Origin: Vampirovibrionales bacterium | Lineage (GTDB): Bacteria; Cyanobacteriota; Vampirovibrionia; Vampirovibrionales; JAJTHC01 | Assembly: GCA_044358835.1 (NCBI GenBank) | Contig: JBIKNF010000004.1 | Span: 20,047 to 84,046 of the forward strand | DNA length: 64,000 bases | Reading direction: 5' to 3' | Shown: piece after piece, positions 1,640 through 63,393 of the stretch | Layout of the letters: each line of letters begins with the position of its first letter | How positions within the stretch are numbered: position 1 is the first letter of the stretch | Position numbers and translations under genes: made by a program | The notes under the pieces: generated by a model | What the model was told of the DNA's origin: nothing | The model's database searches: none | What the model saw: the letters and a program-made list of their open reading frames with translations, nothing else

Positions 1640-2902
1640 ATGCATCGTGACTTTTTTAACGCATTTTTCAAACCCTTTGGCTGGCATCGAATCGGACGCC
1701 TTGGCCTGTTGTGGGTGTTGTTACTATTTTGCACGGGGCCTCTTTTCTTAAGCGGATGCGATGTGCCGGGGAGTAAACCGCCTGTAGAAGAAGGATCGCC
1801 AGAAGCCGAAGGCGAAGACACTGAAGAAAGCGAAGACGGTGAAGGTGAAGGTGAAGGCGAAGACGGTGAAGAAGGCGAATCCCCCAAAAAGCCCGTCGTC
1901 CCCACTCCCCCCGCACTCACGCATTTAAACTACACCCTCCCCGAAGACTTCCACCCCACTCGACTGAGCTGGACAACCGCGGACGGCTTTATTCTACAAG
2001 GCGATTTATACAGCCCGTATGGCGAAGTACAAGCCCTCAAAGCGCCTGCCCCCCCCAAAGCCGCAGCACCCGCAGGTGATGAGGAGGCGGAAGCAGAGGC
2101 CGAAGACGCGGAAGCCCCCGAAGAAGAGGCTGAAGCCCCTGCCAAACCTAAAACCCCTCCGCCACGGCCCGTGCCAAGCTTTCGATACCCCTTGGTGGTG
2201 TTGACGCATCGTTTGTCGTCTTCAGGCAAGCGGGTGAAGTTTTTGGTACCAGAGTTTGTTAAGGCAGGCTATGCGGTTTTGGTATTGGACGTTCGGGGCC
2301 ACGGCATAAGTGAAGGCTTGGCGTATGGGGGCATGAAATCTTGGCGGGTGTTTGACGCCTTGGACTGGAGGCAACTCACCAAGGATCTAAAGCAGGTGGA
2401 ACAGTACTTTAGGCGCCCCGAACTGGATCTCGCCAAGTTCCCCCTAGAAGTAAAACCCAAGAAAATGACGATGATTGCCGAAGGCATTAGTGCCAACGCT
2501 TGTTTGGTAAACGCAGCGGAACAAGATGTTCATTTGAATGCTGTGATTAGTATTGGAGCCACCCTTGAAAGTAAGAAAATTAGCCCTATTTTGGCGGTCA
2601 TGAATAGCCATGTGCCGATTTTATACATGGCCAGTGAAAGTGAAGAAATGAGCTATGCAGACACGCAAAAGCTTTTTCGCATTACGGAATCGGCCAAAGC
2701 GCTAAGTTTATTTGCGGATGAAGGCCCAGGGATGGAACTGTTACGCAATGATGTAAAGGCTCAACAAACGGCCATGGCGTGGGTAAAGCGCTACATGCCC
2801 CCCGCAGAAGTGGAACCCGCCTTTCAGCAGGCGTTAAAAAACGCGACCATGGCGTGGGCGAAGCACAAGTCAACTCCACAGCCGATTGCTCATACCATTT
2901 AA
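1640..2902 (+). CDS. Lipoprotein with acidic/Ala-Pro low-complexity linkers and a degenerate alpha/beta-hydrolase domain
   Basis: Lipobox LSGC, E/G/D-rich tracts and a YAVLVLDVRGHGIS hydrolase motif. The nucleophile elbow reads IAEGISANA. Confidence 0.75.
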   Translation: MHRDFFNAFFKPFGWHRIGRLGLLWVLLLFCTGPLFLSGCDVPGSKPPVEEGSPEAEGEDTEESEDGEGEGEGEDGEEGESPKKPVVPTPPALTHLNYTLPEDFHPTRLSWTTADGFILQGDLYSPYGEVQALKAPAPPKAAAPAGDEEAEAEAEDAEAPEEEAEAPAKPKTPPPRPVPSFRYPLVVLTHRLSSSGKRVKFLVPEFVKAGYAVLVLDVRGHGISEGLAYGGMKSWRVFDALDWRQLTKDLKQVEQYFRRPELDLAKFPLEVKPKKMTMIAEGISANACLVNAAEQDVHLNAVISIGATLESKKISPILAVMNSHVPILYMASESEEMSYADTQKLFRITESAKALSLFADEGPGMELLRNDVKAQQTAMAWVKRYMPPAEVEPAFQQALKNATMAWAKHKSTPQPIAHTI

Positions 2903-3039
2903 ACGAATAAATAGCGTATAGGTGGATTCTAGGAGCCTAGACTCGCAGATGGGTGAAGTGTACATAAACGTACATAAGCACATCGAGAACCTGAGCGACA
3001 AAGAAGACGCCAGACGCTATTTAATCGCTTAATTGGTAT
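2892..3039. mobile_element. MITE-like repeat family A, copy 1 (148 bp, about 26-bp imperfect terminal inverted repeats)
   Basis: ATACCATTTAAACGAATAAATAGCGT...ACGCTATTTAATCGCTTAATTGGTAT; 144/148 identical to 14530-14677. Confidence 0.85.
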
Positions 3040-3147
3040 CAGGGTGAAGTACACACAGGGGCTTGATGAAGAAACTGTAACCAAAGGGCAGTTTAGTCAC
3101 ATATAGTGTTCAAAAGATAAAGCGGTTGCTGTTGTTTAAATCCGATC

Positions 3148-6046: not shown

Positions 6047-6127
6047 CCGCACTTTTTTTATTTGAGGAGGTTTCATGCTTATAAGTGTATAAAATAGCTG
6101 CATAGACATTGGCACAAGGATTTTTTC

Positions 6128-8005
6128 ATGATGATGAGCAACGAATATCTGGATACCATGCAGGCGTTTTTTAGAAATCGCCCTCGCTTGAACGACTGGC
6201 AACAGCAAAAAGCCGATGAAACTAAGCAAAGCGACGTGTACTATCAAGCCAAACCACTTCAACCGCAAGATCAAACCCGTGTCAATCAAAAAGTTGAACG
6301 AATTTTAGATGCCACCACCGTCTTGGATCAAGCATCTGAACAAGCCGCCCAAAGCACTGAAGTGGCGATCGGTAGTGTAGTAGGCTTGGGAACGCTTCCT
6401 GTAGTGATGGGCTTAAGCTTGGGTTCCCTTTTCTTAGCCGAAAATGCACTAAAAAAAGCTAAAAATCCCTTACTTGGGTTGTCTAAATACTTAACAATTC
6501 TTGGGGCAGGGGTTATCCCCACCCTTGCTTTAACAGGCTTTTCAGCCATTTGGGGGGCTCAACAAGAAACACGCGCCTCTCGTATCGCTCGACGCCAAAC
6601 CCGCCAAGGTGAACTCGCCAACCCCAATCGTTATGCGTTATTCACGGAAGAACAAAAGCAAATCGCATTACAAAATGCCTCCCACATTTCAAATGAATCC
6701 ATTGAAGCCGAAGAAAAAGCCAAAAATGATAAAACCGACGGCTTGGGCGGAGCTTTCCATCAGCTTAAAACGCTCGCAACGGACAAACAGTCCCATGAGC
6801 GAGACGAGTTACTCAACAAAGTGAATGAACGCTTAAACAAGCCTAATCAAGCCTTTTTACCACAGAATGAAAAAGAGTTGAAAGAAGATGCTGCGTTGGT
6901 GTCGAACATCACCCGAACGATTAACGATCAAAGTGAATCCTATACGGAAAATGTGGAAAATGCGTATCAAACCCTTAGCTTAGGATTTTCTTCCCTTGTG
7001 GCACTTCCGCTTACCCTAGGCATCACTTATTTACTTAGCAAAACAAAAATCCTAAAAGAAGGAGATTTTTCAACCAAAGCTCTAGTGGGTCTGGTCACAT
7101 TTTTGATTCTTGAAATCCCGCTTTTGATGTTGGGAAACAGCTTAGAACGTGACGGAGCCAGAGTGGCTCGTTGGAAGGCACGTCAGGACATAAAAAATAA
7201 TCCCAACAGTATGCTCGCCGTGCCTGATGAGGACAAGGCTTCGGTACAAGGCATTAAAGATGAAAACTTCAAACCTAAAGGCATTTGGGATAGCTTCAAG
7301 CAAGCCTTTACCCTACCTTTTGAGTTTATGAAAGACCATAAAGCGTATCAAGCGTGGGAAAAAACCGAAGGCATCGAAGAAAAGAAGCGTCGTAAGGCGT
7401 TGGATCAAATCCAACTAAGCCCTGAACAACGTGAAAAAGCCAAGCGTTTACAGGCTCGTACGCATGAAGCCTTTAACTTGACGGATGAATATTCGCAAGA
7501 CAGCGAAATGATGGAAGCCAGTACAGATACCCTCAAACAAATTGCAGGAGAAATTCCGCAATTGGCGTTAATGGCTCCTGCGGTGGCGATAGTGGCAGGG
7601 CATTATGTACCTTTGCCTAAGGTCAAATGGCTTGAAGAAGCAGCGAAGACGCATGGCATTGAAGTGCCGACAACTGATGTTAAAAAATGGGAACCCTTGC
7701 TCACTGATTGGCGTTTAGAAGCCTTGAAAGAATCGAAGCAAGTCAAATGGGTACAAAACCAATATAAAGAAATTAACGAAAAAATGGGGAAAGCACTGTT
7801 TAATAAGGGACTTCTTTTTCCTATCATAGGGGGGTTAGCTGTTTTACTAGGGCCGGTTTTATTGCTTAACAGCCTTTTCACACGCTGGCAGAAAGATTCG
7901 ATGCGGGTGGGCTTGATGCAAGCCGATGACGCCATGAAGCATCCCAACTTTTTTAAGTTGGACGGCCAAGAAAAGCAACGCCCTCCCAATCCCACCGTGG
8001 CTTAA
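6128..8005 (+). CDS. Hypothetical membrane protein with three internal repeats, each holding a hydrophobic hairpin
   Basis: 625-aa ORF with three similar modules; no signal peptide seen. Confidence 0.8.
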   Translation: MMMSNEYLDTMQAFFRNRPRLNDWQQQKADETKQSDVYYQAKPLQPQDQTRVNQKVERILDATTVLDQASEQAAQSTEVAIGSVVGLGTLPVVMGLSLGSLFLAENALKKAKNPLLGLSKYLTILGAGVIPTLALTGFSAIWGAQQETRASRIARRQTRQGELANPNRYALFTEEQKQIALQNASHISNESIEAEEKAKNDKTDGLGGAFHQLKTLATDKQSHERDELLNKVNERLNKPNQAFLPQNEKELKEDAALVSNITRTINDQSESYTENVENAYQTLSLGFSSLVALPLTLGITYLLSKTKILKEGDFSTKALVGLVTFLILEIPLLMLGNSLERDGARVARWKARQDIKNNPNSMLAVPDEDKASVQGIKDENFKPKGIWDSFKQAFTLPFEFMKDHKAYQAWEKTEGIEEKKRRKALDQIQLSPEQREKAKRLQARTHEAFNLTDEYSQDSEMMEASTDTLKQIAGEIPQLALMAPAVAIVAGHYVPLPKVKWLEEAAKTHGIEVPTTDVKKWEPLLTDWRLEALKESKQVKWVQNQYKEINEKMGKALFNKGLLFPIIGGLAVLLGPVLLLNSLFTRWQKDSMRVGLMQADDAMKHPNFFKLDGQEKQRPPNPTVA

Positions 8006-8087: not shown

Positions 8088-9542
8088 TTATTGCGCATAG
8101 CCCGTGTATTGTTGGGGGTATTGTTGATAAGCTGTATTCGGATCATAAGGCGCAGTATACACAGGGGGGTAAGGATTGTACCCTTGGTAAGGATCATAAT
8201 TCACAGGCATTGAAGAATACATCGGTTGATAAGGCGTGTAGGCTTGGTAGGGATTGTACGTTTGAAAAGAACTATATGCTTGGTAAGGTTCCATGTACCG
8301 TTGAGGAGGAGCATACACGGGAGGGTATGGGTTATAGCTCTGGTAAGGATCATAAGCATTGTAGTAAGGGGGGGTGTATCCGTAATTCGGTTGCACCGCG
8401 GCATAAGGGTCTGCATCGCCCGCGATTGGGAAAGAATTATAGTCTGTATTATAGTTTGGGCTATATCCTGTGTTATATCCTGTGCTAGGAGGCGCATAAG
8501 GATTATTATACAAGGGAGGAGCGTAGTCATAATCAGGCGTGGCAGAAGGCGTTTTAGACCACGTATTGCCTTTATTGACCACATGTAAATCATAGTACTG
8601 ATTTAAGTACACTGGATCGCTGGTTCCTGCAGCAGCCCGTTCGGTGGCGCCTTTTCCATCTGCAATGCGGTTGCCCCAGCGGATTTCATTTTCACTTCGC
8701 AAGGTGGCGGCATAAGAAGGATCCACGCCCTTGTCTTGCAAGGCTTTAAGTGTGGCAGGGTCAAAGCGTTCATAGTGCGTTAAGGTAATCGGCACATTTC
8801 CTGAATTGCCAGACTTCATTTCAAGCTTTGCCAAGGGATCTTTAGGATCTCCGATAATCAATGGGGTCGATGAGTTGGGGTTAAATACCGTGACGTTGCC
8901 TTTAGGATCGATATACTTGGTTTGCCCGTCAGAAAGTAAAACACTGTGTTTTTCGCCCGTTTTCGGGTCAATAATCGTGGCCTTACTTTCAGTGGCCGCA
9001 ACGTTGTCCTTACGATCGGTGACGTTAATATCTTCATAAAAATTATTAATCACTAGGCCGTTGTCCGCATACACCCGCACCGCGGTGCCACTGGGGGGGT
9101 GAAACGTCCCTTCGTGATTACTGGTGCCAGTGATTTTGTACACTTCAGGATCGCCCGCGACACCGCCTTCATAGGTGGGTGTTTTGCCAGGGTTGTAATA
9201 ATAGATTTTGTTGACATTGCTTGAGGTTGATGTTTTAGAAACATCGTCCAATGAAGCAACAGTGTAATTTTTCCATTGATTCTTGGCATCGGTAAGGGGG
9301 AACTTGTTGTAGTACGCATCGGCCACAAAGCCGGTGGCTTGATCTCCTTCAGAGTTGAGATACACGTTTTTTTGTTGTGGGTAATAAGGCACGTAAGAAG
9401 GTGGCGTGTACACAGGGGGTGCATAGTAAATGGGTGCTGATTGAGGAGGAGGATTATAAATAGGCAACGGCTGTTGAGGCATATAGGTTTGATAAGGGGT
9501 GTAAGGCTGATAGCTTTGAGGGGGAAAGTTATAAAGAGACAT
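8088..9542 (-). CDS. Hypothetical protein: Tyr/Pro/Gln-rich termini flanking a globular core
   Basis: 484-aa ORF. The C-terminus has repeats such as YDPYQSYNPYPPVYAPPQ and YDPYQGYNPYPPVYTAP. Confidence 0.8.
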   Translation of the reverse strand: MSLYNFPPQSYQPYTPYQTYMPQQPLPIYNPPPQSAPIYYAPPVYTPPSYVPYYPQQKNVYLNSEGDQATGFVADAYYNKFPLTDAKNQWKNYTVASLDDVSKTSTSSNVNKIYYYNPGKTPTYEGGVAGDPEVYKITGTSNHEGTFHPPSGTAVRVYADNGLVINNFYEDINVTDRKDNVAATESKATIIDPKTGEKHSVLLSDGQTKYIDPKGNVTVFNPNSSTPLIIGDPKDPLAKLEMKSGNSGNVPITLTHYERFDPATLKALQDKGVDPSYAATLRSENEIRWGNRIADGKGATERAAAGTSDPVYLNQYYDLHVVNKGNTWSKTPSATPDYDYAPPLYNNPYAPPSTGYNTGYSPNYNTDYNSFPIAGDADPYAAVQPNYGYTPPYYNAYDPYQSYNPYPPVYAPPQRYMEPYQAYSSFQTYNPYQAYTPYQPMYSSMPVNYDPYQGYNPYPPVYTAPYDPNTAYQQYPQQYTGYAQ

Positions 9543-9592
9543 AAAAATCGTTCACTTTCTACATAGGGTTGAGGAGTTGCATTGAGCTTGCT

Positions 9593-9738
9593 ATAATGTT
9601 CGCTATATAAAACGGTCTATGGTCTCTTCGTTGTAGCTACGATTTTTTTGCTTGGTTATGTAGCCTGTCTACACGCCCGCACAAAAAATCTAAGCTCCTA
9701 GAATAGCCTCATAGCCTGTTTCATCTATCGAACATTAT
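9593..9738. mobile_element. MITE-like repeat family B, full copy (146 bp)
   Basis: The termini ATAATGTTCGCTATATAAAAC and GTTTCATCTATCGAACATTAT are inverted repeats. The interior matches 32072-32148, 46999-47036 and 38509-38553. Confidence 0.75.
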
Positions 9739-9796
9739 GGGAATATCTTGGTCTATGTGAAAGGTATCGGTGGATGTGAAACGTTGCTTCAATCGC

Positions 9797-9815
9797 TTGT
9801 AACATTCCGTTACGA
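9797..9815. promoter_or_regulatory. Palindromic putative transcription-factor site TTGTAAC-N5-GTTACGA
   Basis: Near-identical to the perfect palindrome at 44231-44251. Confidence 0.45.
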
Positions 9816-9822
9816 AACATTG

Positions 9823-9851
9823 AAAAAGCCACCCTCTAAATGAGTGGCTTT
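9823..9851. terminator. Hairpin, probable terminator of glgP-direction transcription
   Basis: AAAGCCAC...GTGGCTTT stem with an A run on + (U run on -). Confidence 0.55.
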
Positions 9852-9969
9852 ACTCCCTCTCCCTCTGGGAGAGGGTTGGGGTGAGGGTCTTAGGATGCCC
9901 ATCCATGCTGGTGTTTCCCTCATCCTAGCCTTCTCCCAGAGGGAGAAGGAACAAGGCAAAATAGACTTT
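9846..9969. repeat. REP-like doublet (family D), copy 1
   Basis: CCCTCTCCCTCTGGGAGAGGGTTGGGGTGAGGG plus an inverted partner CCCTCATCCTAGCCTTCTCCCAGAGGGAGAAGG; homologous to 42344-42489. Confidence 0.8.
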
Positions 9970-9989
9970 TACGGAGTGTTCTATAATTC

Positions 9990-10099
9990 TTACAACGCTG
10001 CGGGCTGATACAAGAACGTGTAGTATTCAATCGCCATACGGTCGCTGTCAAAGTACAGAGAAGCAAACTGAATCGCCCGTTGCATCAATTCCGCCCACC
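9990..10099 (-). repeat. Displaced duplicate of the glgP 3' end (110-bp direct repeat)
   Basis: 108/110 identical to 10587-10696 and includes the TAA stop. Both differences are synonymous in the GlgP frame. Confidence 0.95.
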
Positions 10100-10542
10100 T
10101 ATATCGCATCAATATTGAAGTGGTATCCATGAATTTTTAATTTCTTACTTTGATCCTCACTCAAGCCAACGGTGGTTACAGCCTCTCCTTTTTGAAATTT
10201 ACCCTTAAATTCAATGCTATAGAAAATTCCCTCAGGGGTATATTGTACTTGAGTGGTAGCATCATCCCCCTTGTCACGTGTTAAGAATTTTCCTAAATGC
10301 TTATTTTGAAATATGAATATTTTTTTATTTTTATCTTTAGTCACTACTTTCTTATAGTCGTCTGTAGTTAATTCATTATAAATATCATCGTAGGCTTGAT
10401 CGTTATATTTTTTGTATAATTGATCTAAAGTAGCATTGATTTCAGGCTCTTTATCACCCAGTAGCGAGAAACAACCAGTCAAATTAGTACAAATTAAAAT
10501 AACCACAAAAACACCTATAATACTTCGTAATTGTTGAATCAT
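10099..10542 (-). CDS. AT-rich foreign-looking lipoprotein (147 aa)
   Basis: Lipobox LTGC and an AAGGA SD. The sequence is visibly much more AT-rich than its flanks and lies between the two glgP 3'-end repeats. Confidence 0.85.
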   Translation of the reverse strand: MIQQLRSIIGVFVVILICTNLTGCFSLLGDKEPEINATLDQLYKKYNDQAYDDIYNELTTDDYKKVVTKDKNKKIFIFQNKHLGKFLTRDKGDDATTQVQYTPEGIFYSIEFKGKFQKGEAVTTVGLSEDQSKKLKIHGYHFNIDAI

Positions 10543-10586
10543 TATTTCATCCTTCTGTAATTGAATACGGTAATATACAAAGGGTA

Positions 10587-12200
10587 TTACAAGGCTGCGG
10601 GCTGATACAAGAACGTATAGTATTCAATCGCCATACGGTCGCTGTCAAAGTACAGAGAAGCAAACTGAATCGCCCGTTGCATCAATTCCGCCCACCGTTG
10701 AGGGTGATCATAATACGTCGGCAAAACACGGTCTTCAATAATGGTCATCATGCTTTCATAATCGCGTTGGTGTAATTCTGCATCACTCGCATTACCACTG
10801 GTGCCTTCAGGATTGATGATGAAGCCGTTATACTCGTCAAAGGTACCTTCAACCGCCCAGCCGTCATCCGTAGACATATGCAAAGTTCCGTTAAAATTGG
10901 CAGACATCCCTGAAGTGCCTGAGGCTTCCAAGGGGCGCTGAGGCGTATTGAGCCATAAATCAGCCCCCCGCTTCATGCGACCGGAAAGTTCCAGTTCGTA
11001 ACCAGGTAAAATCGCCACACCCTTCATGGTTTTAGAAAGCGCAATCACATGGTTAAAGGTGTCACGTCCCCACGTGTCTTTGGGGTGAAACTTACCCGCA
11101 AACACGATTTGAAGCTTTTTAGAATCCAGCAAACGCTTAATGCGGGCCATGTCCTTAAAAATGAGATCCGCCCTCTTGTAAGCGGTAAAGCGTCTTGCCC
11201 ACACAATGGTAAAGACATCAGGATCCAAACTCGTGCCCGCTTCTTGGTTGACGAATTCAATGAACTCCTTACGCATGACTTTTTTAGCACTGAGCAGTTC
11301 TTCGGCGGTTTTGGCTTGGGCAATACGTTCGTCTTGCCAGTATTTTAAATTGGTGGCGTTAGTGACAGCGTGAATGTTGCAACGTCCTTGCACCCACTTC
11401 CACATATCGGCGGCGACTTCTCCATGAAGTTGAGACACCCCATTGGCGAGACGGCTTAAACGCAACGCCGCCACCGTCAAAGAAAAATGATCGCCCCCTA
11501 AACGGCAGGCTTCATCCCGATGGGTATTGACAAAAAAGCCCGCTTCTAGCAATAAATCTACAGGGTGAATTTCATTGCCCGCAGGCACAGGCGTATGCGT
11601 GGTAAACACAAGCTTTGAACGCACCAAGTCATAGTTATTTCCATAAAGCCTTAAAAGTTCAAACGCCGCTGGTAAGGCATGGCCTTCATTCATGTGTACG
11701 GTGTCATACTTTACGGAAAGAGCCGACAAGGCGCGCACGCCCCCCACGCCCAAAATAACTTCTTGAGCCACACGAATACGTTCATCCGCATCATAAAGCT
11801 TGTTGGAATAATCTCGCACGTGTTGGGGATTTTCAGGCAAATCAGTGGTTAGGAAGTAGCACGGGCATGTGCCGAAGGTCTTGGGTTCCAGCAAAAACGG
11901 CTTGACTTTGACGAGTTCACCGTAAATGGAAACATCAACCGTCACGCCTGTGTCAACCAAAAAGTCGTAGGAACGATCGACATACTTAATTTGAATTTCG
12001 TTATTTTCGTCGATGTATTGATCCCCATAACCCTGTTTCCAAAGAATGCTCACGCCCACCATAGGTAAGCCCAAGTTCCCTGCCGAAAGCATGTGAGAGC
12101 CTGACAAAAAGCCCAAGCCCCCAGAATAGGTATGAAAACTTTGATCAATCGCCATTTCCATGGTGAAGTAGGCCACTTTTTGTAAAAGAGCAAGATGCAT
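10587..12200 (-). CDS. glgP: Short alpha-glucan (glycogen/maltodextrin) phosphorylase, GT35 family
   Basis: YSGGLGFLSG, HMNEGH, FTTHTPVPAGNE, WARRFTAYKR and EASGTSGM motifs. Confidence 0.9.
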   Translation of the reverse strand: MHLALLQKVAYFTMEMAIDQSFHTYSGGLGFLSGSHMLSAGNLGLPMVGVSILWKQGYGDQYIDENNEIQIKYVDRSYDFLVDTGVTVDVSIYGELVKVKPFLLEPKTFGTCPCYFLTTDLPENPQHVRDYSNKLYDADERIRVAQEVILGVGGVRALSALSVKYDTVHMNEGHALPAAFELLRLYGNNYDLVRSKLVFTTHTPVPAGNEIHPVDLLLEAGFFVNTHRDEACRLGGDHFSLTVAALRLSRLANGVSQLHGEVAADMWKWVQGRCNIHAVTNATNLKYWQDERIAQAKTAEELLSAKKVMRKEFIEFVNQEAGTSLDPDVFTIVWARRFTAYKRADLIFKDMARIKRLLDSKKLQIVFAGKFHPKDTWGRDTFNHVIALSKTMKGVAILPGYELELSGRMKRGADLWLNTPQRPLEASGTSGMSANFNGTLHMSTDDGWAVEGTFDEYNGFIINPEGTSGNASDAELHQRDYESMMTIIEDRVLPTYYDHPQRWAELMQRAIQFASLYFDSDRMAIEYYTFLYQPAAL

Positions 12201-13676: not shown

Positions 13677-14559
13677 CCCCCGTCTTAATTTCAACCGTTG
13701 GATGCCTGGCCTATTTATCCTACCTGTTGTTGTGGGGCTTTTTTGCTTGAATTACATCCCGAGTTTTTACGCGTTTTATTTGAGCTTTCAGCAATGGAAC
13801 CTTTTAGAAGCTCCACAGTGGGTGGGGCTAGAAAACTACCAGCACCTTTTGGCTTCGCCCGCCTTTGTTCAAACCCTGCGTCAAACGGCGTATTATGTGG
13901 GCGGAATCGTTCTAGTTGAACTCTTGTGTTCAATCCTTATTGCAACAGCCTTGCATCGCCTAACCCGAGGCAAACGGCTGTTTCAAGTCTTGGCTTTTTT
14001 GCCCTATGTGACGCCTGCCATGGCGGCTAGCCTGATTTTTATGTGGATTTTTCAGCCTGAACAAGGCCTATTAAATAGTAGTTTACAAGCAGTGGGGGTG
14101 CTAAAAAGTCCGATTGCCTGGCTTTTTACGCCTCATACGGCCTTAATGGCCGTAATAAGCCTTGAAGTATGGAAAGCAACAGGCTATAATATGCTCTTAA
14201 TTTTGGGGGCCTTACAAGCCTTGCCCCAACACCTTGATGAAGCCGCAAGCTTAGATGGGGCGTCTGGCTTACGAAAATGGTGGTGGGTCACGCTCCCTCA
14301 GCTCATGCCCACCGTTTTACTAGTAGCCATGATGACGACCATTCATGCCCTACAAGCCTTTGACGCCATTTACTTGCTCACCCAAGGCGGGCCCAATCGC
14401 GCCACAACCGTTTTGGCCTACGCCTTGTATGAAACCGCGTTTCAGCGTTTTGAACTGGGGCAAGCCACCGCGTTGGGTGTTGTTATCTTTACCATTATTG
14501 CCATTTTAACTGGGTTACAATGGCGTTTGATACCATTTAAACGACTGAATAGCGTATAG
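13666..14559 (+). CDS. Carbohydrate ABC transporter permease (MalF/UgpA type)
   Basis: WVGLENY and the EAA loop LDEAASLDGAS..KWWWVTLPQL. The last 10 codons lie inside MITE A copy 2. Confidence 0.92.
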   Translation: MRPNPRLNFNRWMPGLFILPVVVGLFCLNYIPSFYAFYLSFQQWNLLEAPQWVGLENYQHLLASPAFVQTLRQTAYYVGGIVLVELLCSILIATALHRLTRGKRLFQVLAFLPYVTPAMAASLIFMWIFQPEQGLLNSSLQAVGVLKSPIAWLFTPHTALMAVISLEVWKATGYNMLLILGALQALPQHLDEAASLDGASGLRKWWWVTLPQLMPTVLLVAMMTTIHALQAFDAIYLLTQGGPNRATTVLAYALYETAFQRFELGQATALGVVIFTIIAILTGLQWRLIPFKRLNSV

Positions 14560-14677
14560 GTGGATTCTAGGAGCCTAGACTCGCAGATGGGTGAAGTGTA
14601 CATAAACGTACATAAGCACATCGAGAACCTGAGCGACAACGAAGACGCCAGACGCTATTTAATCGTTTAATTGGTAT
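14530..14677. mobile_element. MITE-like repeat family A, copy 2 (148 bp)
   Basis: 144/148 identical to 2892-3039. Confidence 0.85.
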
Positions 14678-14695
14678 GAGTCCAAGACGCAGTCC

Positions 14696-18772: not shown

Positions 18773-19540
18773 ATGAATCGTATTAGTTCCACTCCTTTTT
18801 CACCTTACGGAAACAGCCCGCCCGCTTTGATTTTTCCACCAGCTCAAGGGTATTCGAATGATTCAAACAATTACAGTAAATACCCCCCCGGTTCGCCTTT
18901 GGCCAATCCACCTTCGATTTATGGAAATACGTTTCAAGCGCCGCCTCGAACCATTTCTGCGTTCACAGGGTATGACCCCCGTGTGGGATATAATCCCACC
19001 GTCTATGACAGCCCTGTTAGGCACGATGGCTTTTTGGGGTATATGGCCCCTCAATATATTGGGCAATCTCCTGTTCCCGTGTATAGTTTAAAAGAACTCA
19101 TGTTGGGTCGTGGGGATGCGACGATTTATCCCTACCCGCCTAGCTATAACACACCGTTACCCGCTTACGCACCACTACAGAGCTATGGCCCACCGCAAAG
19201 CTACGGCCCACCACAGAGTTATGGCCCACCACAAAGCTACGCCGCGCCACCGCAGAGCTATGGCCAACCACAAAGCTACGCACCACCGCAAAGCTACGCA
19301 CCACCACAGATCTATGGCACACCGCAAAGCTACGGCCCACCACCCAGCTACGCGCCACCGCAAAGCTACGGCCCACCGCAGAGCTATGGCCAACCACAAA
19401 GCTACGCACCACCGCAGAGCTACGGCCCACCACAGTCACAGTTTACTAGTTTTCAATATACAGGGCCACGTAATGCTTTGCAGAACCCCATTTATGGGCC
19501 ACCCCAACAAACCCATCCCATGGGGGTTCGGTATTTTTAA
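18773..19540 (+). CDS. Low-complexity protein with (S-Y-G/A-P/Q-P-Q)n repeats
   Basis: 255-aa ORF. The third codon positions vary between repeat units while the amino-acid pattern is kept. Confidence 0.75.
   Translation: MNRISSTPFSPYGNSPPALIFPPAQGYSNDSNNYSKYPPGSPLANPPSIYGNTFQAPPRTISAFTGYDPRVGYNPTVYDSPVRHDGFLGYMAPQYIGQSPVPVYSLKELMLGRGDATIYPYPPSYNTPLPAYAPLQSYGPPQSYGPPQSYGPPQSYAAPPQSYGQPQSYAPPQSYAPPQIYGTPQSYGPPPSYAPPQSYGPPQSYGQPQSYAPPQSYGPPQSQFTSFQYTGPRNALQNPIYGPPQQTHPMGVRYF
19181..19435 (+). repeat. Intragenic tandem repeat: 14 units of 18 bp (one is 21 bp)
   Basis: Unit consensus AGCTAYGSCCMACCRCAR; 13x18+21=255 bp. Confidence 0.95.
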
Positions 19541-32071: not shown

Positions 32072-32148
32072 ATAGTGCTTGAAAGATAAAACGGTCTATG
32101 GTCTCTTGGTTTTCGCTACGATTTTTCTTGCTTGGTTATGTTCGTCTG
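32072..32148. repeat. Family B MITE fragment (left about 77 bp)
   Basis: ATAGTGCTTGAAAGATAAAACGGTCTATGGTCTCTT...GCTACGATTTTTCTTGCTTGGTTATG aligns to the left half of 9593-9738. Confidence 0.8.
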
Positions 32149-32150
32149 TA

Positions 32151-32390
32151 ACCAAAAAAGCGTGGGGTTTACGCACTAGGCAAAGCGCTTAAAAATACGT
32201 TATACTGAAAAAGAGTGGCTGTTTTGAACAGGCCTTCACACCCCCCAAAAAATCCTTGAAAATCGAGCAAAAAACCGACTTTTGTGGCCAAGAAACCGAC
32301 TTTTGTGGCCAGAAAACGGACTTTCGTGGCCAAGAAACCGACTTTCGTGGCCAGAAAACAGACTTTTGTGTGTCGGAAATTAGGCCATTT
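32151..32390. repeat. Family C dispersed element with a 5 x 21-bp tandem array, copy 1
   Basis: Homologous end to end to 49971-50190. GACT anchors at 32277, 32298, 32319, 32340 and 32361. Confidence 0.9.
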
Positions 32391-38480: not shown

Positions 38481-38575
38481 ATACCGTTTAAACGAATAAA
38501 TAGCGTGTAAGCCTAGTATAGACTCATCGCCTGTTTCATCTATCAAACACTATAATTATACCGCTTAAAGGGTAT
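38481..38575. repeat. Chimeric repeat: family A left end + family B right end + 18-bp palindrome
   Basis: 38481-38506 ATACCGTTTAAACGAATAAATAGCGT; 38509-38553 matches the right end of 9593-9738; 38558-38575 ATACCGCTTAAAGGGTAT. Confidence 0.8.
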
Positions 38576-42343: not shown

Positions 42344-42489
42344 GGCTTTACCCCCTCTCCCTTAGGGAGAGGGTTGGGGTGAGGGATTCGGGATGTACAG
42401 TTTTAGCTGGTGTTTCCCTCCTCCTAGCGTAGCCCGCCATAGGCGAGACGTCCGACCTGAGGGAGTAGGAACAAAGCAAAAAAGGCTTT
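42344..42489. repeat. REP-like doublet (family D), copy 2
   Basis: CCCTCTCCCTTAGGGAGAGGGTTGGGGTGAGGG; homologous to 9846-9969 with a different insert in the second hairpin. Confidence 0.8.
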
Positions 42490-46694: not shown

Positions 46695-46998
46695 AGTCTG
46701 GCGGGGAGTTTATTGGGCTTAAGTTTGGGTCGCTTAAATCGAAGGATTCCGTAAGCGGAAAGGCATTTGGGAGTTGAGCGTTTTTTCTTTCTGTTAATCT
46801 CGTTTAAACAAATGCACCCTTAGGTGGATTTATCTTCAGCTTGAAGTGAAACATCGTCTACATTCATGCCGTAAAAATGCTGTAAACCCTTATTCTTACT
46901 ATCTTTAAACACCTTGAAATAGACTTTTTTTTATGAAGACACATACTATCAAAAAAGCATTCACAGCCCACTTTCTTTGATTTACATTAGAACTTAAG

Positions 46999-47036
46999 CG
47001 AAGAGACCATAGACCGTTTTATCTAGCGAACACTAT
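46999..47036 (-). repeat. Family B MITE end fragment
   Basis: The reverse complement ATAGTGTTCGCTAGATAAAACGGTCTATGGTCTCTTCG matches the left end of the 9593 copy. Confidence 0.8.
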
Positions 47037-47122
47037 AAAGGCTTTCTTCAAACATTGCATCATGTTAATAGATTCAAGCTTCGCAAGAGTGAACGAAGCG
47101 TTTTTTAGGGTATGAATTTTTT

Positions 47123-59520: not shown

Positions 59521-59970
59521 ATGATGATGATGTCTCTTTCAAACACGACCCTTCGCCCCAGTCGAAGACGCACCCCCCCCGCTCAAGAAAGCCACACCCC
59601 CACCGTGTGGATCGTGGAAGATGAAGCCAAGTGGCAAGACGCCTTTTCACTTCTAGTGGGCATGGCCTTTGCGGGTGCTCACATTCAACAAGCGGATTGT
59701 GCCGAAAAAACGCAAGATTGGTTGACCCTTAGTGCCAAGCAAACGGCCCCCCAGTGGGCGGATGCCGTGTTGATGGATTGGCAGCTCGCCAATGGCGATG
59801 ACGGCTTGGCGTTGGTGAACGCGTGGGTGGAAGCGGGTTTGCCAGCAGAACGAGTGATTATCGTGAGTGGGGCGGATGATGTGCCGTCGCATCCTTACAC
59901 AGTGGTGACCAAATCGCAAGCTGGGGCTTTGCTGGTGCCGACCCTATTGCAACTGGCGAATAAAGTCTAA
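59521..59970 (+). CDS. Stand-alone response-regulator receiver protein
   Basis: VWIVEDE, phospho-acceptor VLMDW, IIVSG and VVTKS. Confidence 0.8.
   Translation: MMMMSLSNTTLRPSRRRTPPAQESHTPTVWIVEDEAKWQDAFSLLVGMAFAGAHIQQADCAEKTQDWLTLSAKQTAPQWADAVLMDWQLANGDDGLALVNAWVEAGLPAERVIIVSGADDVPSHPYTVVTKSQAGALLVPTLLQLANKV
59946..59970. repeat. 25-bp direct repeat, left boundary of the RT islet
   Basis: ATTGCAACTGGCGAATAAAGTCTAA, identical to 61950-61974. Confidence 0.95.
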
Positions 59971-60081
59971 GGTCTCTTTAAGCTGTCCCACTTGTGGGTT
60001 AAGGGGCGGTTAAACCCTAGACTCCGTTTGTGGTATCATAATTCTCTTAGGTTTGTTTTATTTGTGGAGTGTCCTTTTATT

Positions 60082-61905
60082 ATGGTAGATATATTACCTA
60101 TATTTTTAGATGACAAACAGGCTGATTTTTTTACAAACACGGATAAAATCCCACCTTATTTTACGACCAAGTTTTTTTTTGATTTTATCAATAAACAAAA
60201 AAAAATAAACACATTGTTGACAAAAAAGATTAAAGAAACCAAATGCCTTCGATTTACAGCACCCAATAAAAAAACTTCACATAGAAGAGAATTAAAAGTT
60301 CCAAACCCTTATGTATACTTACAATTAGCTCATAAAGTATCAGAACTCTACACAAAGCAACAAGATAAAGACACAGTCCCAAATTTAAAAACAGATAAGC
60401 TCTTGAACCTTCAGTTTGAAAAAGAAAAACCTATCTTAAAAAAACATGACGTAATCAGTTCAAGGTGTTACAAGGATGTTCAAGGCTATTCTTATCATTT
60501 AAAAATAGACATCAGTCAATTTTATCCAAGTATTTACACTCATTCAATACCATGGGCTGTTTTAGGAAAAAAGGATGCAAAGAAAAAGTATAATGATTCG
60601 AGTCTTAAATGTGATCTATATAAGTTAGGGGATGAAATAGACAAATTACTAGAAAAGATGAATAGCAAGCAAACCAAAGGAATACCTGTTGGAGCGACGT
60701 TATTTCATTTTGTGGCAAAGCTAATTACAGACAGAATAGATAAAGAATTTAGTGATTTTATTGAAAAAGGCAAGATAGATTGTGAGTTTAGTCATTATGT
60801 AGATGATTACTACGTATTTTGTCATAGTGAAGCAGATGCAAATCGTCTTCTTTCTGAATTCGGAAACATTTTAAATCGCTATGAATTACATATAAATGCT
60901 AACAAAACCCAAATTACTCATGTTGATGAATGGTCAGTTCTCCCTTTTTGGCGACCCATTATAGAAGAAGTATTAGATGTATTTAATGATTTAAAAAATG
61001 ATGTTCTTTGGTCAAAATTAACCGAAAAAAGACTATTACGCTGTTTTGAAAGAATAAGGCAATTAAGAAAAGGGAAATATAAAGCAGAACAGCATTTAAA
61101 TTATTTCCTTTCATCCTTATTGAGTCTTTTAGAAAAACCTTTATTAGAATATTACGCTATTCTCTTCATGAATTTTTTAATAGAAGTTTCTAAAGATCCT
61201 CTAGAGGTTACTTTAATGTATCCACGACCTTCTTCTCCATTATTTATAAGTCTTTACCTGAGTGTTCATGACTTTCAAACACTTGTAGAGACCTTTATTC
61301 TTCCTTTCATTATGCAATGTATTTCACTAGAACCTTCAACCATTCGATACATAGCGGAGCAAAAAACTGTTAAAATGCTCAAACCTTTCCTTCAGAACAA
61401 TGAAAAGTCTAAGAAAGTAATAAAAGCGACTCTTCAAAAAACGATAGACCGTTATTACACTCAAGAGCTGATGTGGGTATTGTATGTTTTGATTGAATAT
61501 GAGCTATTAGATATTGTTGCTAATGATAAAAATGATCTATACGAGAGACTCAAGGAATATCCTAACTCAATGGTAAAATGTTTAGTTATGGAAATTGAAC
61601 TTGATCCAAATTTTTGTAGTGGTTTTGAAGAAAGTTTATTCGAGAAAACAAAATCGGACTATAAAAAATTTAAAGATGAAGATTGGAAGGATCTATTTAA
61701 AAGTGAAGATTGGCTTTTGTACTTTTTTATGCGAGGCAAGGGACGTGAACAAAATGAGGATTTCACACTCTGCGAAACAGGCATCCCGTTAATAGATAAT
61801 TTTTTCAAAGCGACGACAGGAAACAAAACGTTTTTTGATAAAGAGGCTAAAGTTCTCAAACGAAGCTATTATGACCCACATTTTCAGAATGATGCATCAT
61901 CCTAA
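60082..61905 (+). CDS. Abi/UG-class reverse transcriptase (AbiK-like), 607 aa, probable anti-phage protein
   Basis: RRELKVPNP, DISQFYPSIYTHSIPWA, QTKGIPVG, HYVDDY and INANKT motifs, plus a long helical C-terminal region. Visibly AT-rich; ATG at 60082 after a GGAG SD. Confidence 0.9.
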   Translation: MVDILPIFLDDKQADFFTNTDKIPPYFTTKFFFDFINKQKKINTLLTKKIKETKCLRFTAPNKKTSHRRELKVPNPYVYLQLAHKVSELYTKQQDKDTVPNLKTDKLLNLQFEKEKPILKKHDVISSRCYKDVQGYSYHLKIDISQFYPSIYTHSIPWAVLGKKDAKKKYNDSSLKCDLYKLGDEIDKLLEKMNSKQTKGIPVGATLFHFVAKLITDRIDKEFSDFIEKGKIDCEFSHYVDDYYVFCHSEADANRLLSEFGNILNRYELHINANKTQITHVDEWSVLPFWRPIIEEVLDVFNDLKNDVLWSKLTEKRLLRCFERIRQLRKGKYKAEQHLNYFLSSLLSLLEKPLLEYYAILFMNFLIEVSKDPLEVTLMYPRPSSPLFISLYLSVHDFQTLVETFILPFIMQCISLEPSTIRYIAEQKTVKMLKPFLQNNEKSKKVIKATLQKTIDRYYTQELMWVLYVLIEYELLDIVANDKNDLYERLKEYPNSMVKCLVMEIELDPNFCSGFEESLFEKTKSDYKKFKDEDWKDLFKSEDWLLYFFMRGKGREQNEDFTLCETGIPLIDNFFKATTGNKTFFDKEAKVLKRSYYDPHFQNDASS

Positions 61906-61947
61906 CTAATCTTAATACCTCACCTCCCCCGCACTCCCATGGTAAGC

Positions 61948-63393
61948 TCATTGCAACTGGCGAATAAAGTCTAACGCCTCTTCTTTGCTATGGATGCGTC
62001 CCAAGGCGTGGGCGTCTTTGAGTTGTGCCAAGATCTGCCCTACCCGAGGGCTCGGGGGAATCCCCAACGCCTGCATGATGCTTTCACCGTCCAACAACGG
62101 CGGAGCCTGCCGTTGAGCCTTCCCCTGCCAATAGCGATGCAACAAATCCAGCAAGTCCGCTTGAGCCGTCGCCAAGGCTTCAGTCGTAAAGGCGTGACCC
62201 CGTGTACTTAAGGTATCCGCCAACGCCAGCACGATGAGAAAGGGCGTGTCTTCTGCGATACGCCGAAAAAAGCGGAGCCTGCTTTTTTCACTGCTTTGCT
62301 CGTCAAACGTACAGGGGTACAAATGCCATTCCACCAAGCGACTCACCCGATGCTTCACCGCTTGGCTCAGTTTCCATTCACTCAACAAAGGGCTAAGCAC
62401 GTCGACTCCCTTTTTTTCATGCCCGATGAATCGGTGCCGAAAGTTGGGTTCTACCTGCCATGTGTGCGGTTTGGCAATATCGTGAAACAGGCACGCCATT
62501 TTGACCAAGCCGTATTCGCTCGCCCCATGACTGCTGGGTTGTGTTAAGGCGTTTTGGGTGTGGGCGTCTAAAATAGGGTAAATGAGTTCAGCTTGACGGA
62601 TGAGTTCTAGGCTATGTTCCCACAACGGCAAGTGATGATGCGAATTGGGACTCACCATTTTCAGCGCTTTTAGGGGGGGGAACAACGCTTCTAAAATGCC
62701 AGCATCCGCCATGATTTGCATCGTGGGGAAGGCGTTTTCGGCGGAAAGCAACTTAAACCACTCGACTGCCATGCGTTCTTTGGCGACGCTATGTAAGTAA
62801 GGTAGGCAGGCTTTTGCCCAGTTTAAGGTTTTGGCTTCAATTGTAGTAGGGGTTTGAGCCGTGTTTAAGCTCGCATGAAAGCGAAAGATCCGTAAAATCC
62901 GCAAGGGATCGTCCTTAAGATTCTCAAGGCTCAAGGCTCGAATCACGCCAGCGTCTAAATCCGCTTGCCCCTCGTATAAATCGAGCAATTCACCGCGTTG
63001 CGTATGCACCGCTAGAGTATTGAGGCTTAAATCCCGACGCGCCAAGTCCGCTGTAATATCATCCCCTTGCACCTGAACGACATCCAAAAATAGCGGCGGG
63101 CGTTGCGTGTCTTCATGCAAGAAAACGACCCGATAAATCCCCCACGATTCATCCAACACCACCAACCGTGTATGCGGAACGGCGTCTTGCACGGCGTGAG
63201 CCACCGCTTTGGCGGACGCTCCCACAATACTCACGTCTATATCTTCAAGGGGAAAGGGCTTGTTGAGTAGTGCATCTCGAACGGCACCCCCCACGATGTA
63301 AGCGTCTGCTCCAGCGAAGGCTTTTAGCGCCTCATTTAGGGCGACAATGCGAACATCACTTAAAAGTTGGGCGAAAACATTAGTCGGATTCAT
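61948..63393 (-). CDS. cca: Class II tRNA nucleotidyltransferase with HD domain (probably CC-adding)
   Basis: IVGGAVRDALL, DIDV, DLARRDLSLN, DDPLRILRIFRF, ERMAVEWFKLL and LFHDIAKP. Confidence 0.88.
   Translation of the reverse strand: MNPTNVFAQLLSDVRIVALNEALKAFAGADAYIVGGAVRDALLNKPFPLEDIDVSIVGASAKAVAHAVQDAVPHTRLVVLDESWGIYRVVFLHEDTQRPPLFLDVVQVQGDDITADLARRDLSLNTLAVHTQRGELLDLYEGQADLDAGVIRALSLENLKDDPLRILRIFRFHASLNTAQTPTTIEAKTLNWAKACLPYLHSVAKERMAVEWFKLLSAENAFPTMQIMADAGILEALFPPLKALKMVSPNSHHHLPLWEHSLELIRQAELIYPILDAHTQNALTQPSSHGASEYGLVKMACLFHDIAKPHTWQVEPNFRHRFIGHEKKGVDVLSPLLSEWKLSQAVKHRVSRLVEWHLYPCTFDEQSSEKSRLRFFRRIAEDTPFLIVLALADTLSTRGHAFTTEALATAQADLLDLLHRYWQGKAQRQAPPLLDGESIMQALGIPPSPRVGQILAQLKDAHALGRIHSKEEALDFIRQLQ
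61950..61974. repeat. 25-bp direct repeat, right boundary of the RT islet
   Basis: Identical to 59946-59970; on the minus strand it encodes LDFIRQLQ of the cca-family gene. Confidence 0.95.

Follow-up and report, generated by a model that had tools for sequence, protein, structure and literature searches.

At the extreme 3′ end of glgP, a single AT-rich lipoprotein gene lies between two near-identical copies of the last 110 bp of that gene, and a defence-type reverse transcriptase (RT) gene lies in a like arrangement at the 3′ end of cca, within the same window (the whole stretch of DNA analysed, 64 kb). The two islets of like layout point to a recurrent, integrase-free addition of single genes that leaves the neighbouring genes unbroken. 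The best reading of these data, which we hold tentatively and with slightly less than even confidence, is that foreign single genes were inserted at the 3′ ends of core genes independently of a recombinase.

The duplicated glgP 3′ end and its insert

The host of the window is a lake Vampirovibrionales bacterium. Its glgP-like gene (10587..12200, minus strand) encodes an alpha-glucan phosphorylase of 537 aa that matches PF00343 and TIGR02094, the match to the latter (alpha-glucan-family phosphorylase) reaching 446 bits against a cut-off of 191.7. Positions 9990–10099 and 10587–10696 are identical at 108 of 110 nt; the window contains no third copy, and none is expected by chance. The proximal copy (A2; 10587..10696, minus strand) provides the functional last 36 codons of glgP together with the TAA stop, and equals the allele of the empty-site relative L001 over 109 nt. 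The distal copy (A1; 9990..10099, minus strand) is a non-functional relic of the glgP 3′ end, marked by C79, G103 and TAA. In the gene sense (minus strand), the copies differ at repeat position 79, which lies in a TAT codon in the proximal and a TAC codon in the distal copy, and at position 103 (GCC and GCG, respectively). Both copies translate as RWAELMQ...YQPAAL-stop, so that both differences are synonymous; at the boundary, the proximal copy has the codon CGG and the distal copy AGG.

The 487 bp between the copies have a GC content of 31 %, as compared with 47 % for the 64-kb window, and consist of a 44-nt leader and one 147-aa ORF, with no pseudogene debris. The leader (10543..10586, minus strand) starts directly after the glgP TAA and carries the SD sequence AAGGATG at 10548–10554; it does not fold into a stable hairpin (–5.2 kcal/mol, z +0.66), nor does it contain a convincing promoter of its own. 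At the opposite end, the TAG stop of the cargo spans the junction, with TA contributed by the cargo and G by the first base of the distal repeat. The junctions of this islet and of the RT islet are blunt and free of microhomology, and no terminal inverted repeats were found in the lipoprotein insert. The junction sequence CAACGGTGG recurs within the cargo as a 9-nt inverted copy (10167–10175), which was judged to be a chance occurrence.

The distal copy is followed by GAATTATAG and then by a palindromic element, a succession that defines the window-type distal flank. This palindromic repeat element (9846..9972; 127 nt, –60 kcal/mol hairpin) lies 17 nt past the distal stop; it is absent from every empty allele and is a separate insertion, and in an Rfam search it matched only generic hairpin noise. 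A similarity between one arm of the element and the end of the RT cargo, noticed by eye, was not significant by BLAST. The native intrinsic terminator of the glgP unit (9823..9848, minus strand), a hairpin of –16.2 kcal/mol (z –4.4) with a U run after it, has been shifted to the far side of the cargo and the distal copy. Co-transcription is plausible because the leader lacks a stable hairpin and the terminator now lies past the distal copy; judging from this arrangement, transcription of glgP probably runs on into the cargo, which would be a passenger on the same message. Within the proximal copy, a TTGACA-18-AATACT match at 10648–10619 is a possible promoter. A 151-nt repeat pair (2892–3042 and 14530–14680), considered as the boundary of a larger island, was rejected as such, being an intergenic element present in multiple copies that borders the ends of two unrelated genes.

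Alignment and translation thus confirm the 108/110 duplication with synonymous differences and a CGG/AGG boundary that the initial annotation had described, and its single-gene AT-rich islet, with an SD of its own and a start 44 nt after the glgP stop, stands as well. Its proposal that the cargo is transcribed from the glgP promoter is plausible in light of the hairpin-free leader and the position of the native terminator.

The cargo lipoprotein

The GC content of the cargo gene (10099..10542, minus strand; 31 %) falls 4.4 sd below that of the other 54 window genes (z –4.4). Its 147-aa product matches DUF4019 (PF13211) with 30 bits, above the Pfam gathering cut-off of 26.5, and an AlphaFold2 model (pLDDT 83, pTM 0.71) predicts an alpha+beta cone fold, whose best matches are the NTF2-like domains of PBP2a/PBP3, ketosteroid-isomerase-like and VirB8-like proteins, with weak E-values (3e-3 and above). 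Bacterial lipoproteins have a signal peptide that ends in the lipobox pattern [LVI][ASTVI][GAS]C. In the cargo protein the corresponding segment is MIQQLRSIIGVFVVILICTNLTG followed by C, with L-T-G-C at residues 21–24, and the product is a predicted lipoprotein; several of its relatives have the same arrangement of signal peptide and lipobox. It would act as an NTF2-like lipoprotein in the cell envelope.

The cargo protein is an orphan: among 1.84 billion representative proteins it has only 17 distant relatives, and the best match over the full length is 34 % identical. A search of ~15 billion proteins placed the cargo at one site in one clonal lineage only. With regard to a phage, plasmid or defence origin, no match to the lipoprotein was found in PHROGs, PADLOC, NCBIfam, IMG/VR or the GenBank phages. 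The cargo is compositionally foreign and, within the tentative explanation that we favour, would be a lineage-specific horizontal acquisition.

Empty and alternative alleles at the glgP locus

The filled structure, including both SNPs, is reproduced with 100 % identity in the independent assemblies ENA ERZ27272091 and JGI 3300033978, and in part in ERZ27272100 and JGI 3300034019; JGI 3300059473 is a further sample that contains the filled lineage. An assembly artefact in the form of a collapsed or chimeric repeat, which the initial annotation had named as a possible refutation, is scarcely credible: these are short-read metagenome assemblies, and the contigs of one sample break inside the AT-rich cargo, but the identical structure with its copy-specific SNPs appears across different samples and assemblers, a k-mer of 141, as used in some of these assemblies, exceeds the 110-nt repeat in length, and clean empty alleles exist.

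The initial annotation had proposed a comparison across strains for empty alleles or different cargo, and both are found at the glgP locus. The site is empty in L001, L005 and L021–23, whereas L003 carries a GNAT-like gene, of which L002 and L004 retain a remnant, and L029 a 113-aa gene, none of these cargos being accompanied by a duplication. Comparison of filled with empty alleles reveals a clean 597-bp difference within a uniform divergence of 1–2.7 % on both flanks, and sister lineages with the empty site encode an identical GlgP protein. The empty alleles differ from the filled allele in spacer and terminator type, and are therefore not its excision products. Every contig with the exact downstream gene of the window is filled. 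When the filled lineage was searched for an allele from before the insertion or after an excision, look-ups of exact proteins (the downstream neighbour, cca, Sbt, SOD and the 149-aa gene) returned only filled-type contigs, and a metagenome scan for further glgP alleles yielded 2 loci only.

The glgP gene is a mosaic, in which clustered, lineage-specific synonymous differences separate lineages that are otherwise 98.7 % identical; the clustering of these SNPs shows that glgP frequently recombines between lineages by homology. Where glgP alleles differ in spacer type, their homology invariably stops at the stop codon, and a repeat boundary at this codon is consequently not diagnostic. The proximal copy of the duplication matches the L001/L021-type alleles, and the distal copy, with C79 and G103, leads into a different spacer and terminator type.

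A second islet at cca and a third in a distant relative

Only one other window gene shares the composition of the lipoprotein gene, namely the Drt-type RT gene. Its cargo segment (59979..61949, plus strand; GC 31 %) comprises a 103-nt leader, in which a promoter-like TGgTATCAT is found, and the Drt6/Drt4/AbiK-like RT gene (60082..61905). The RT matches the PADLOC profiles of Drt6 (2e-72), Drt4 (1e-57) and AbiK (9e-42), and its NCBIfam Drt4 match of 142 bits lies below the equivalog cut-off of 450; on these profile matches, it is assigned to the DRT/AbiK defence class and not to a named subtype. The islet is flanked by a 33-nt duplication (31/33 identical) of a segment in which two convergent genes overlap at their 3′ ends. 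Copy 1 (59946..59978, plus strand) contains the functional 3′ end of a 149-aa gene (59521..59970) together with a relic cca 3′ end, which reads ...QLQ-TAG on the minus strand. Copy 2 (61950..61982, plus strand) contains the functional 3′ end of the gene for the CCA-adding enzyme (61948..63393, minus strand), and the last two bases of the RT cargo complete the TGA stop of that gene. The duplication keeps both overlapping convergent ORFs whole, and the two differences between the copies are non-synonymous in the relic frame.

In L049 and L050, the empty cca site is a 27-nt convergent overlap. Cargos unrelated to the RT occupy it in other relatives, a 275-aa protein being encoded in L047 (the site is filled in L047 and L048) and an HNH protein in L051. 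The three cca-site cargos are joined at three different positions, with little or no duplication in L047, and at least three independent insertions have occurred within ~40 nt. Both the glgP and the cca sites are hotspots with diverse cargos, each being a core-flanked interval in which relatives have differing accessory genes or none. A third islet, found in the distant relative L012, is associated with a 24-nt non-coding duplication, and the cargos of the three islets have no termini in common. A Pfam scan that took in all 55 ORFs of the 64-kb window revealed no integrase, resolvase or transposase, in agreement with the initial annotation, and a recombinase encoded elsewhere in the genome may still act in trans.

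Origin of the islets

In the reading that we favour, a promoterless foreign cassette of 487 bp, made up of the leader and the lipoprotein ORF, would have been inserted at the extreme 3′ end of glgP by an illegitimate, recombinase-independent event that duplicated 110 bp of the target. A staggered break that was then filled in may have produced the duplication; alternatively, the incoming DNA may have entered at a replication fork, through a template switch or by annealing at two points. The proximal copy would keep the glgP frame complete, with the old end left behind as the non-coding relic that is the distal copy; the insertion would have survived, and the duplication been retained, because the neighbouring ORFs stay intact. 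The same process may have been repeated in the clade, placing AT-rich single genes, some of them anti-phage, at core-gene 3′ ends with target duplications of about 0–10, 24, 33 and 110 nt. Later homologous recombination among co-existing lineages would then have reshuffled the flanks, and such recombination is the most likely source of the two synonymous differences between the copies.

Some observations count against this reading. The blunt joints are unlike those of classical microhomology-mediated illegitimate recombination, and the clustering of insertions at the cca site looks more targeted than random insertion followed by selection predicts. To our knowledge, no bacterial enzyme is documented to make staggered target duplications of 24–110 nt. 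In addition, the synonymous glgP differences match alleles of relatives, a hint that one of the copies came from another allele. The initial annotation had gone further, arguing that both copies have been under coding selection and that the incoming DNA therefore carried a different allele end. This argument is drawn from two SNPs and is only suggestive: were two changes to fall at random, both would be synonymous with P ~0.04 and both would match states seen in relatives with P ~0.02, and the pattern is equally well explained by later recombination with a sister allele, since glgP is mosaic between lineages. In the RT islet, moreover, the copies differ non-synonymously.

Homologous pairing could account for the glgP islet, although we consider it rather unlikely. 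A conspecific donor circle or linear fragment that already held a glgP end next to the lipoprotein gene would have recombined with the resident end, either by a single crossover (Campbell type) or by homology-facilitated illegitimate recombination, and the donor and resident ends would be the two copies. The layout is exactly that of an insertion-duplication, and a proximal copy of L001/L021 type together with a C79/G103 distal copy followed by another spacer and terminator fits two parental alleles. The mosaic structure of glgP is also consistent with frequent recombination between lineages, and it is well documented that genes are gained by recombination within the core genes that flank them (PMC12359135). 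However, this route needs an unsampled donor with an AT-rich gene beside glgP, of which no allele is on record, and it leaves the original junction between foreign DNA and glgP unexplained. Furthermore, the duplications in the other islets, of 24 and 33 nt, just reach or fall short of the length that efficient homologous pairing usually requires, and the non-homologous joint shows no microhomology.

The initial annotation had interpreted the islet as a minimal satellite mobilised in trans or as the remnant of a larger island, with a replacement glgP 3′ end carried in attP. The foreign islet and the preservation of glgP by the duplication stand, but the satellite or remnant itself is improbable. 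In such an integrative element, moved by a site-specific recombinase in trans, the proximal copy would be element-borne and the distal copy would be the displaced original. Direct repeats (110 nt, 108/110) do flank foreign DNA, with their end precisely at the stop codon; their two differences are synonymous and correspond to known alleles, and both the glgP and the cca sites behave as hotspots. There is also a precedent in E. coli, in which icd and the 3′ pseudogene icdC flank e14 and differ mainly by silent changes (PMC13626634). As with e14 or phage 21 in icd, foreign DNA occupies the 3′ end of a housekeeping gene, with a functional copy on one side and a relic on the far side. By comparison, e14 is a 15-kb prophage that has its own integrase and excises, whereas the present insert comprises 487 bp and one gene in a 64-kb window devoid of a recombinase and shows no sign of excision. 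The cargo is exactly a leader and an ORF, without debris or terminal repeats, and is restricted to a single site in a single clonal lineage. A fixed crossover core is not apparent, given that the junctions at cca vary by cargo, with little or no duplication in L047, and that the other glgP-site cargos have no repeat. Moreover, the empty alleles are not excision products, and the stop-codon boundary is not diagnostic. A 12–13-nt motif, GCAACNGGCGAWT, lies near the upstream edges of both window repeats in the same orientation relative to the cargo, which favours a satellite over the reading that we prefer. Because it was recognized post hoc (P ~0.03) and 2.8 % of random segments match equally well, we reject it as an att-like motif and regard it as a weak lead at most.

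It is likewise doubtful that the islets result from an undescribed trans-acting route in Vampirovibrionales, and perhaps in other bacteria, which would open 3′-end or terminator targets with a variable stagger of 24–110 nt. These openings would receive foreign single-gene cassettes, often with defence genes, by blunt ligation, and the duplication would regenerate the neighbouring, even overlapping, frames; this improbable route would have yielded both the lipoprotein and the RT islet.

LINE-like elements, which insert at staggered nicks, generate target duplications of variable length. Accordingly, an RT-mediated insertion, in which the cargo is a retro-copied transcript placed at staggered nicks by target-primed or template-switching cDNA synthesis, would suit the variable duplication lengths, the blunt joints, the resemblance of the lipoprotein cargo to a bare 5′ leader plus ORF and the presence of an RT gene in the window. 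We nevertheless consider it very improbable: the window RT belongs to the Drt/AbiK defence class, with no known DNA mobilisation, and is itself a cargo 50 kb away; the lipoprotein cassette ends at a stop codon instead of a transcript 3′ end, with no poly-A or intron-like features and no Rfam match; and the promoter-like sequence in the leader of the RT islet points to non-transcribed sequence in that cargo.

Comparison with known systems

Most bacterial accessory genes sit in hotspots without recognisable mobile-element machinery, and their first entry is poorly understood. Oliveira et al. 2017 described hotspots between persistent genes at which horizontally transferred DNA integrates, and the concept is taken here in the sense in which PMC12359135 uses it. 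Consistent with such hotspots, the two core-flanked intervals studied here contain different accessory genes or are empty, display recombination tracts in their flanks and lack mobile machinery. Long 3′-end duplications are not predicted by the hotspot concept, whereas both of the gene-bearing AT-rich islets of the window (2/2) have one. T6SS immunity and Rhs orphan arrays gain genes beside a conserved gene, whose older 3′ portion survives further downstream as an orphan (PMC5361080). The islets resemble these arrays, and the homology-facilitated or double illegitimate recombination of natural transformation, in that a new gene stands beside a conserved gene with the old 3′ end downstream. The arrays, however, contain displaced divergent toxin ends with immunity genes and are anchored by homology on one side, whereas the islets have near-identical copies, a cargo unrelated to its neighbour and joints without microhomology.

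The compact single gene of deviant composition that leaves its neighbours undisturbed is reminiscent of phage morons and integron cassettes and, like an integron cassette, the lipoprotein cargo appears to be promoterless and expressed from upstream. In contrast to morons, it resides in the core chromosome and not in a prophage, and an integron gene cassette was rejected because the cargo end has no imperfect-palindrome, attC-like structure, the window encodes no integron integrase and Rfam gave no match. Transposon target duplications are short and of fixed length for each element, and the element ends are defined and usually inverted. As with a transposon or MITE, a direct target duplication flanks the inserted DNA, but duplications of 24, 33 and 110 nt, cargo termini that are neither shared nor inverted and the lack of a transposase led us to reject a transposon, IS or MITE.

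Our comparison provides base-resolved before and after alleles for two gene entries in the window, and for a third from relatives, and in each entry a long target duplication preserves the flanking frames, including those of an overlapping convergent pair. If the pattern is clade-wide, its signature of an AT-rich single gene, blunt joints and a duplication of tens to ~100 nt would be searchable in any pangenome. Such searches would either bring a new mechanism of insertion to light or gauge how strongly random illegitimate insertions are filtered by selection. These loci also add single-gene defence islets, with a Drt-type RT and an HNH protein, to the little-studied, uncultured Vampirovibrionales.

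Genomic setting and anatomy of the glgP islet

Relatives of its glgP gene place the window in the Vampirovibrionales (Melainabacteria) of freshwater metagenomes. The 64 kb represent core chromosome, with genes for S7/S12, NusA, IF-2, RbfA, ATP synthase, BamA, a sigma factor, RecJ, MalQ and a sugar ABC transporter, and contain no integrase, resolvase or transposase, in agreement with the initial annotation, which had noted the absence of an integrase. The glgP gene (10587..12200, minus strand) encodes a 537-aa phosphorylase (PF00343; TIGR02094 alpha-glucan phosphorylase subfamily, above cut-off). Its functional 3' end, the proximal repeat copy (10587-10696, minus), is repeated as a distal copy (9990-10099, minus) with 108/110 identity. 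The differences fall, in gene orientation, at repeat positions 79 (TAT/TAC) and 103 (GCC/GCG), and both copies encode the same 36 residues followed by TAA. No third copy of the 110-nt repeat exists in the window, and shuffled sequence is not expected to contain any.

Between the two copies lie 487 AT-rich bp (31% GC, against 47% for the window), made up entirely of a 44-nt leader, in which AAGGATG serves as Shine-Dalgarno motif, and a 147-aa ORF (10099..10542, minus). The GC content of this cargo gene lies 4.4 sd below that of the other 54 genes of the window, and its TAG stop ends on the distal repeat, whose first base provides the G. The single-gene AT-rich insert between copies with two synonymous differences, as originally described, is thereby confirmed. 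The 9-mer CAACGGTGG, which straddles the proximal repeat's upstream edge (10694-10702), has an inverted match inside the cargo (10167-10175), which we judged to be due to chance. The islet neighbours a gene for a 484-aa Pro/Tyr-rich protein (8088-9542, minus) with PxxY-type repeats at both ends; a 255-aa Pro/Tyr-rich protein is encoded at 18773-19540, where fourteen 18-nt tandem repeats encode PPQSYG. Neither protein has a family match.

The lipoprotein cargo

The cargo protein, full length by alignment, carries a lipobox (LTGC, residues 21-24) and a DUF4019 domain. It is an orphan in a word-indexed search of 5.8 billion protein clusters, which returned only the protein itself; an exhaustive search of 1.84 billion representative proteins gave 17 matches, the best full-length one 34% identical. 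Its AlphaFold2 model (pLDDT 83) adopts an NTF2-like alpha+beta cone, and the nearest folds, all with weak E-values, are the PBP2a/PBP3 N-terminal domain, ketosteroid-isomerase-like proteins and VirB8-like domains. Comparisons with phage, defence and NCBIfam collections gave no match. No stable fold is predicted for the leader (-5.2 kcal/mol, z +0.66), and the terminator, a hairpin with a U run (-16.2 kcal/mol, z -4.4), lies past the distal copy; in alleles without the insert it directly follows the glgP stop. Because the leader is unstructured and the terminator lies past the distal copy, read-through expression of the cargo from glgP is plausible on sequence grounds.

Filled and empty alleles at the glgP site

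The filled structure is reproduced base for base, including both copy-specific SNPs, in the independent assemblies ENA ERZ27272091 and JGI 3300033978, and partly in ERZ27272100 and JGI 3300034019, and is not an assembly error. In ERZ27272100, the assembly breaks within the AT-rich cargo (end of contig L025, start of L031) and not at the repeats, probably owing to a coverage drop in AT-rich sequence. All filled contigs are identical across glgP and therefore represent one clonal lineage; wherever a contig carries the exact downstream gene of the window, it is filled. By comparison, contigs of five other samples are without the insert; they encode an identical GlgP protein, with 19-21 synonymous changes that fall in clusters. 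The insert is likewise missing from the MAGs L001 and L005. On either side of the site, the filled lineage differs from its closest empty sisters to a uniform extent (~1-2.7%), indicating that the filled/empty difference is local. Empty alleles end in TAG, and their 24-nt spacer and terminator stem-loop are unlike those of the filled allele, which rules them out as its excision products.

The glgP site is a hotspot, with other cargo in other lineages. In the interval from the glgP stop to the conserved sequence downstream, locus L003 holds a convergent gene for a 375-aa GNAT-like protein, of which loci L002 and L004 retain a 155-aa remnant, and locus L029 holds a 113-aa gene. All are shifted towards AT (35-40% GC), and none is accompanied by a duplication. 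Both kinds of variant considered in the initial annotation, empty alleles and different cargo, thus occur at the locus.

A second islet at cca and a third in a distant relative

The only other window gene of cargo-like composition (GC 31%, GC3 26%) encodes a reverse transcriptase (60082..61905) of the defence-associated class, with PADLOC matches to Drt6 (2e-72), Drt4 and AbiK. It forms an AT-rich single-gene islet (59944-61982) between a 149-aa gene and cca, flanked by a 33-nt direct repeat (59946-59978 and 61950-61982; 31/33 identical) that holds the overlapping 3' ends of the convergent 149-aa gene (stop 59968-59970) and CCA-adding enzyme gene (stop 61948-61950). Copy 1 ends the 149-aa gene and retains a relic of the cca end (...QLQ-TAG), whereas copy 2 ends cca, whose TGA stop is completed by two cargo bases. 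Both mismatches between these copies are non-synonymous when read in the relic frame, so the exclusively synonymous pattern at glgP is not general.

The predicted empty state, a 27-nt convergent overlap of cca and a 148-aa gene, is found in the related loci L049 (6380-6520) and L050. At the same site, L047 (6400-7520) and L048 carry an unrelated gene for a 275-aa secreted PDZ-like protein, inserted within the cca overlap with little or no duplication and with new C-termini on both neighbours. In L051 (1850-2697), an unrelated HNH-nuclease-like gene begins 8 nt past the cca stop, and the contig stops inside this cargo. The L047/L048 and L051 cargos have 31-32% GC. Judged from these loci, the cca/148-aa-gene junction is a hotspot.

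AT-rich islands were sought across the window and the non-redundant loci: the window's two gene-bearing islands both have flanking direct repeats (2/2), and 321 kb contain no other near-identical repeat pair of at least 50 nt within 5 kb. A third islet lies between pyrG and alaS of L012 (6021-6425), a more distant Vampirovibrionales relative; its AT-rich gene (6055..6285, minus strand) encodes 76 aa, and its 24-nt direct repeat (22/24) is in non-coding DNA beginning 14 nt past the pyrG stop. The three cargos (lipoprotein, reverse transcriptase and L012) share no terminal sequence, and they have neither inverted ends nor joint microhomology. A third low-GC stretch of the window (46751-47225; 36%) is intergenic, without an ORF or flanking repeat.

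Origin of the islets

Any explanation has to account for foreign single genes at core-gene 3' ends, blunt joints and mosaic flanking genes. Target duplications measure about 0-10, 24, 33 and 110 nt, junction positions at the cca site vary between cargos, and the lipoprotein cargo occurs at one site in one lineage. The best-supported reading is illegitimate, recombinase-independent insertion, in which the event would generate a target duplication of variable length and selection would retain only insertions leaving the neighbouring ORFs intact. Non-coding room is near nil at both sites: 24 nt precede the glgP terminator, and at cca the genes overlap by 27 nt. Homologous recombination among co-existing lineages would afterwards reshape the flanks; such later recombination is evident from the clustered synonymous differences.

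The initial annotation proposed that the incoming DNA brought a second glgP allele end. This may be so: both changes are synonymous (P about 0.04) and match states seen in relatives (P about 0.02), and both window repeats share a 12-13-nt motif (post hoc P about 0.03). However, later homologous recombination can also yield the two differences. The proximal copy equals L001/L021-type alleles except for its last base, with TAA in both copies, which is the expected trace of a conversion tract ending inside the proximal copy. Homology-facilitated illegitimate recombination, which has been put forward to explain arrays of displaced gene ends (PMC5361080), may have created or spread the structure, though it needs an unsampled donor allele.

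A fixed-core site-specific recombinase, as in the originally suggested attP/satellite element, is partly supported at best: direct repeats do surround a foreign gene, but the varying junctions and duplication lengths do not fit and no recombinase is present. Furthermore, whenever glgP alleles differ in spacer type, their homology stops at the stop codon, so that a repeat boundary there is not in itself evidence for a designed attP. A transposon is rejected for want of element ends, and a decayed island, including the suggested remnant of a larger one, does not fit a cargo that is a clean leader plus ORF.

The closest formal analogue is e14 in icd, where the far side of the insert likewise carries a relic 3' end and the copies differ silently (PMC13626634). 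e14 is defined by a recombinase, a fixed core and excision; here the 64 kb contain no recombinase, the junctions do not share a core, and the empty alleles are not excision products. The population pattern agrees with that of hotspots between persistent genes and with gene acquisition tied to recombination in the flanking genes (PMC12359135). We file the glgP islet as an insertion at a horizontal-transfer hotspot, set apart by long, reading-frame-preserving target duplications, and consider an undescribed insertion mechanism behind the islets unlikely. By itself the glgP islet would be a curiosity. The layout occurs twice in the window and once in distant L012, with defence genes among the hotspot cargos, making a clade-wide survey worthwhile; interest centres on how 24-110-nt duplications with blunt joints form.

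Other repeat elements

A palindromic element of ~127 nt with a GGGAGAGGGTTGGGGTGAGGG core (hairpin of -60 kcal/mol) lies between the distal stop and the terminator of the filled allele (9846-9972) and is a separate insertion. Further copies occur at 42343-42480, after the sigma-factor gene, and in L029 (3677-3712) and L005 (934-970). The element directly follows the stop codons of the distal glgP relic, the sigma-factor gene and glgP in L029, and looks REP/MITE-like with a preference for 3' UTRs; GGCTTT-type short repeats may flank it.

The non-coding stretch from the glgP terminator to the next gene (9543-9832) is 95-96% identical to that of lineages whose glgP is only 86% and next gene only 75% identical. 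It contains a 34-nt inverted repeat, has no Rfam match, and pieces of it recur elsewhere (32072-32126 and 38512-38553); a related 151-nt element (2892-3042 and 14530-14680; 97%) adjoins the 3' ends of two unrelated genes. The stretch may be a multi-copy intergenic element, an ncRNA or a promoter module. In addition, a 166-nt repeat pair (32151-32372 and 49971-50172; 82%) carries CAAGAAACCGACTTTTGTGGC-like 21-nt units in tandem, with 5 and 2 copies, an arrangement reminiscent of iterons or operator arrays.
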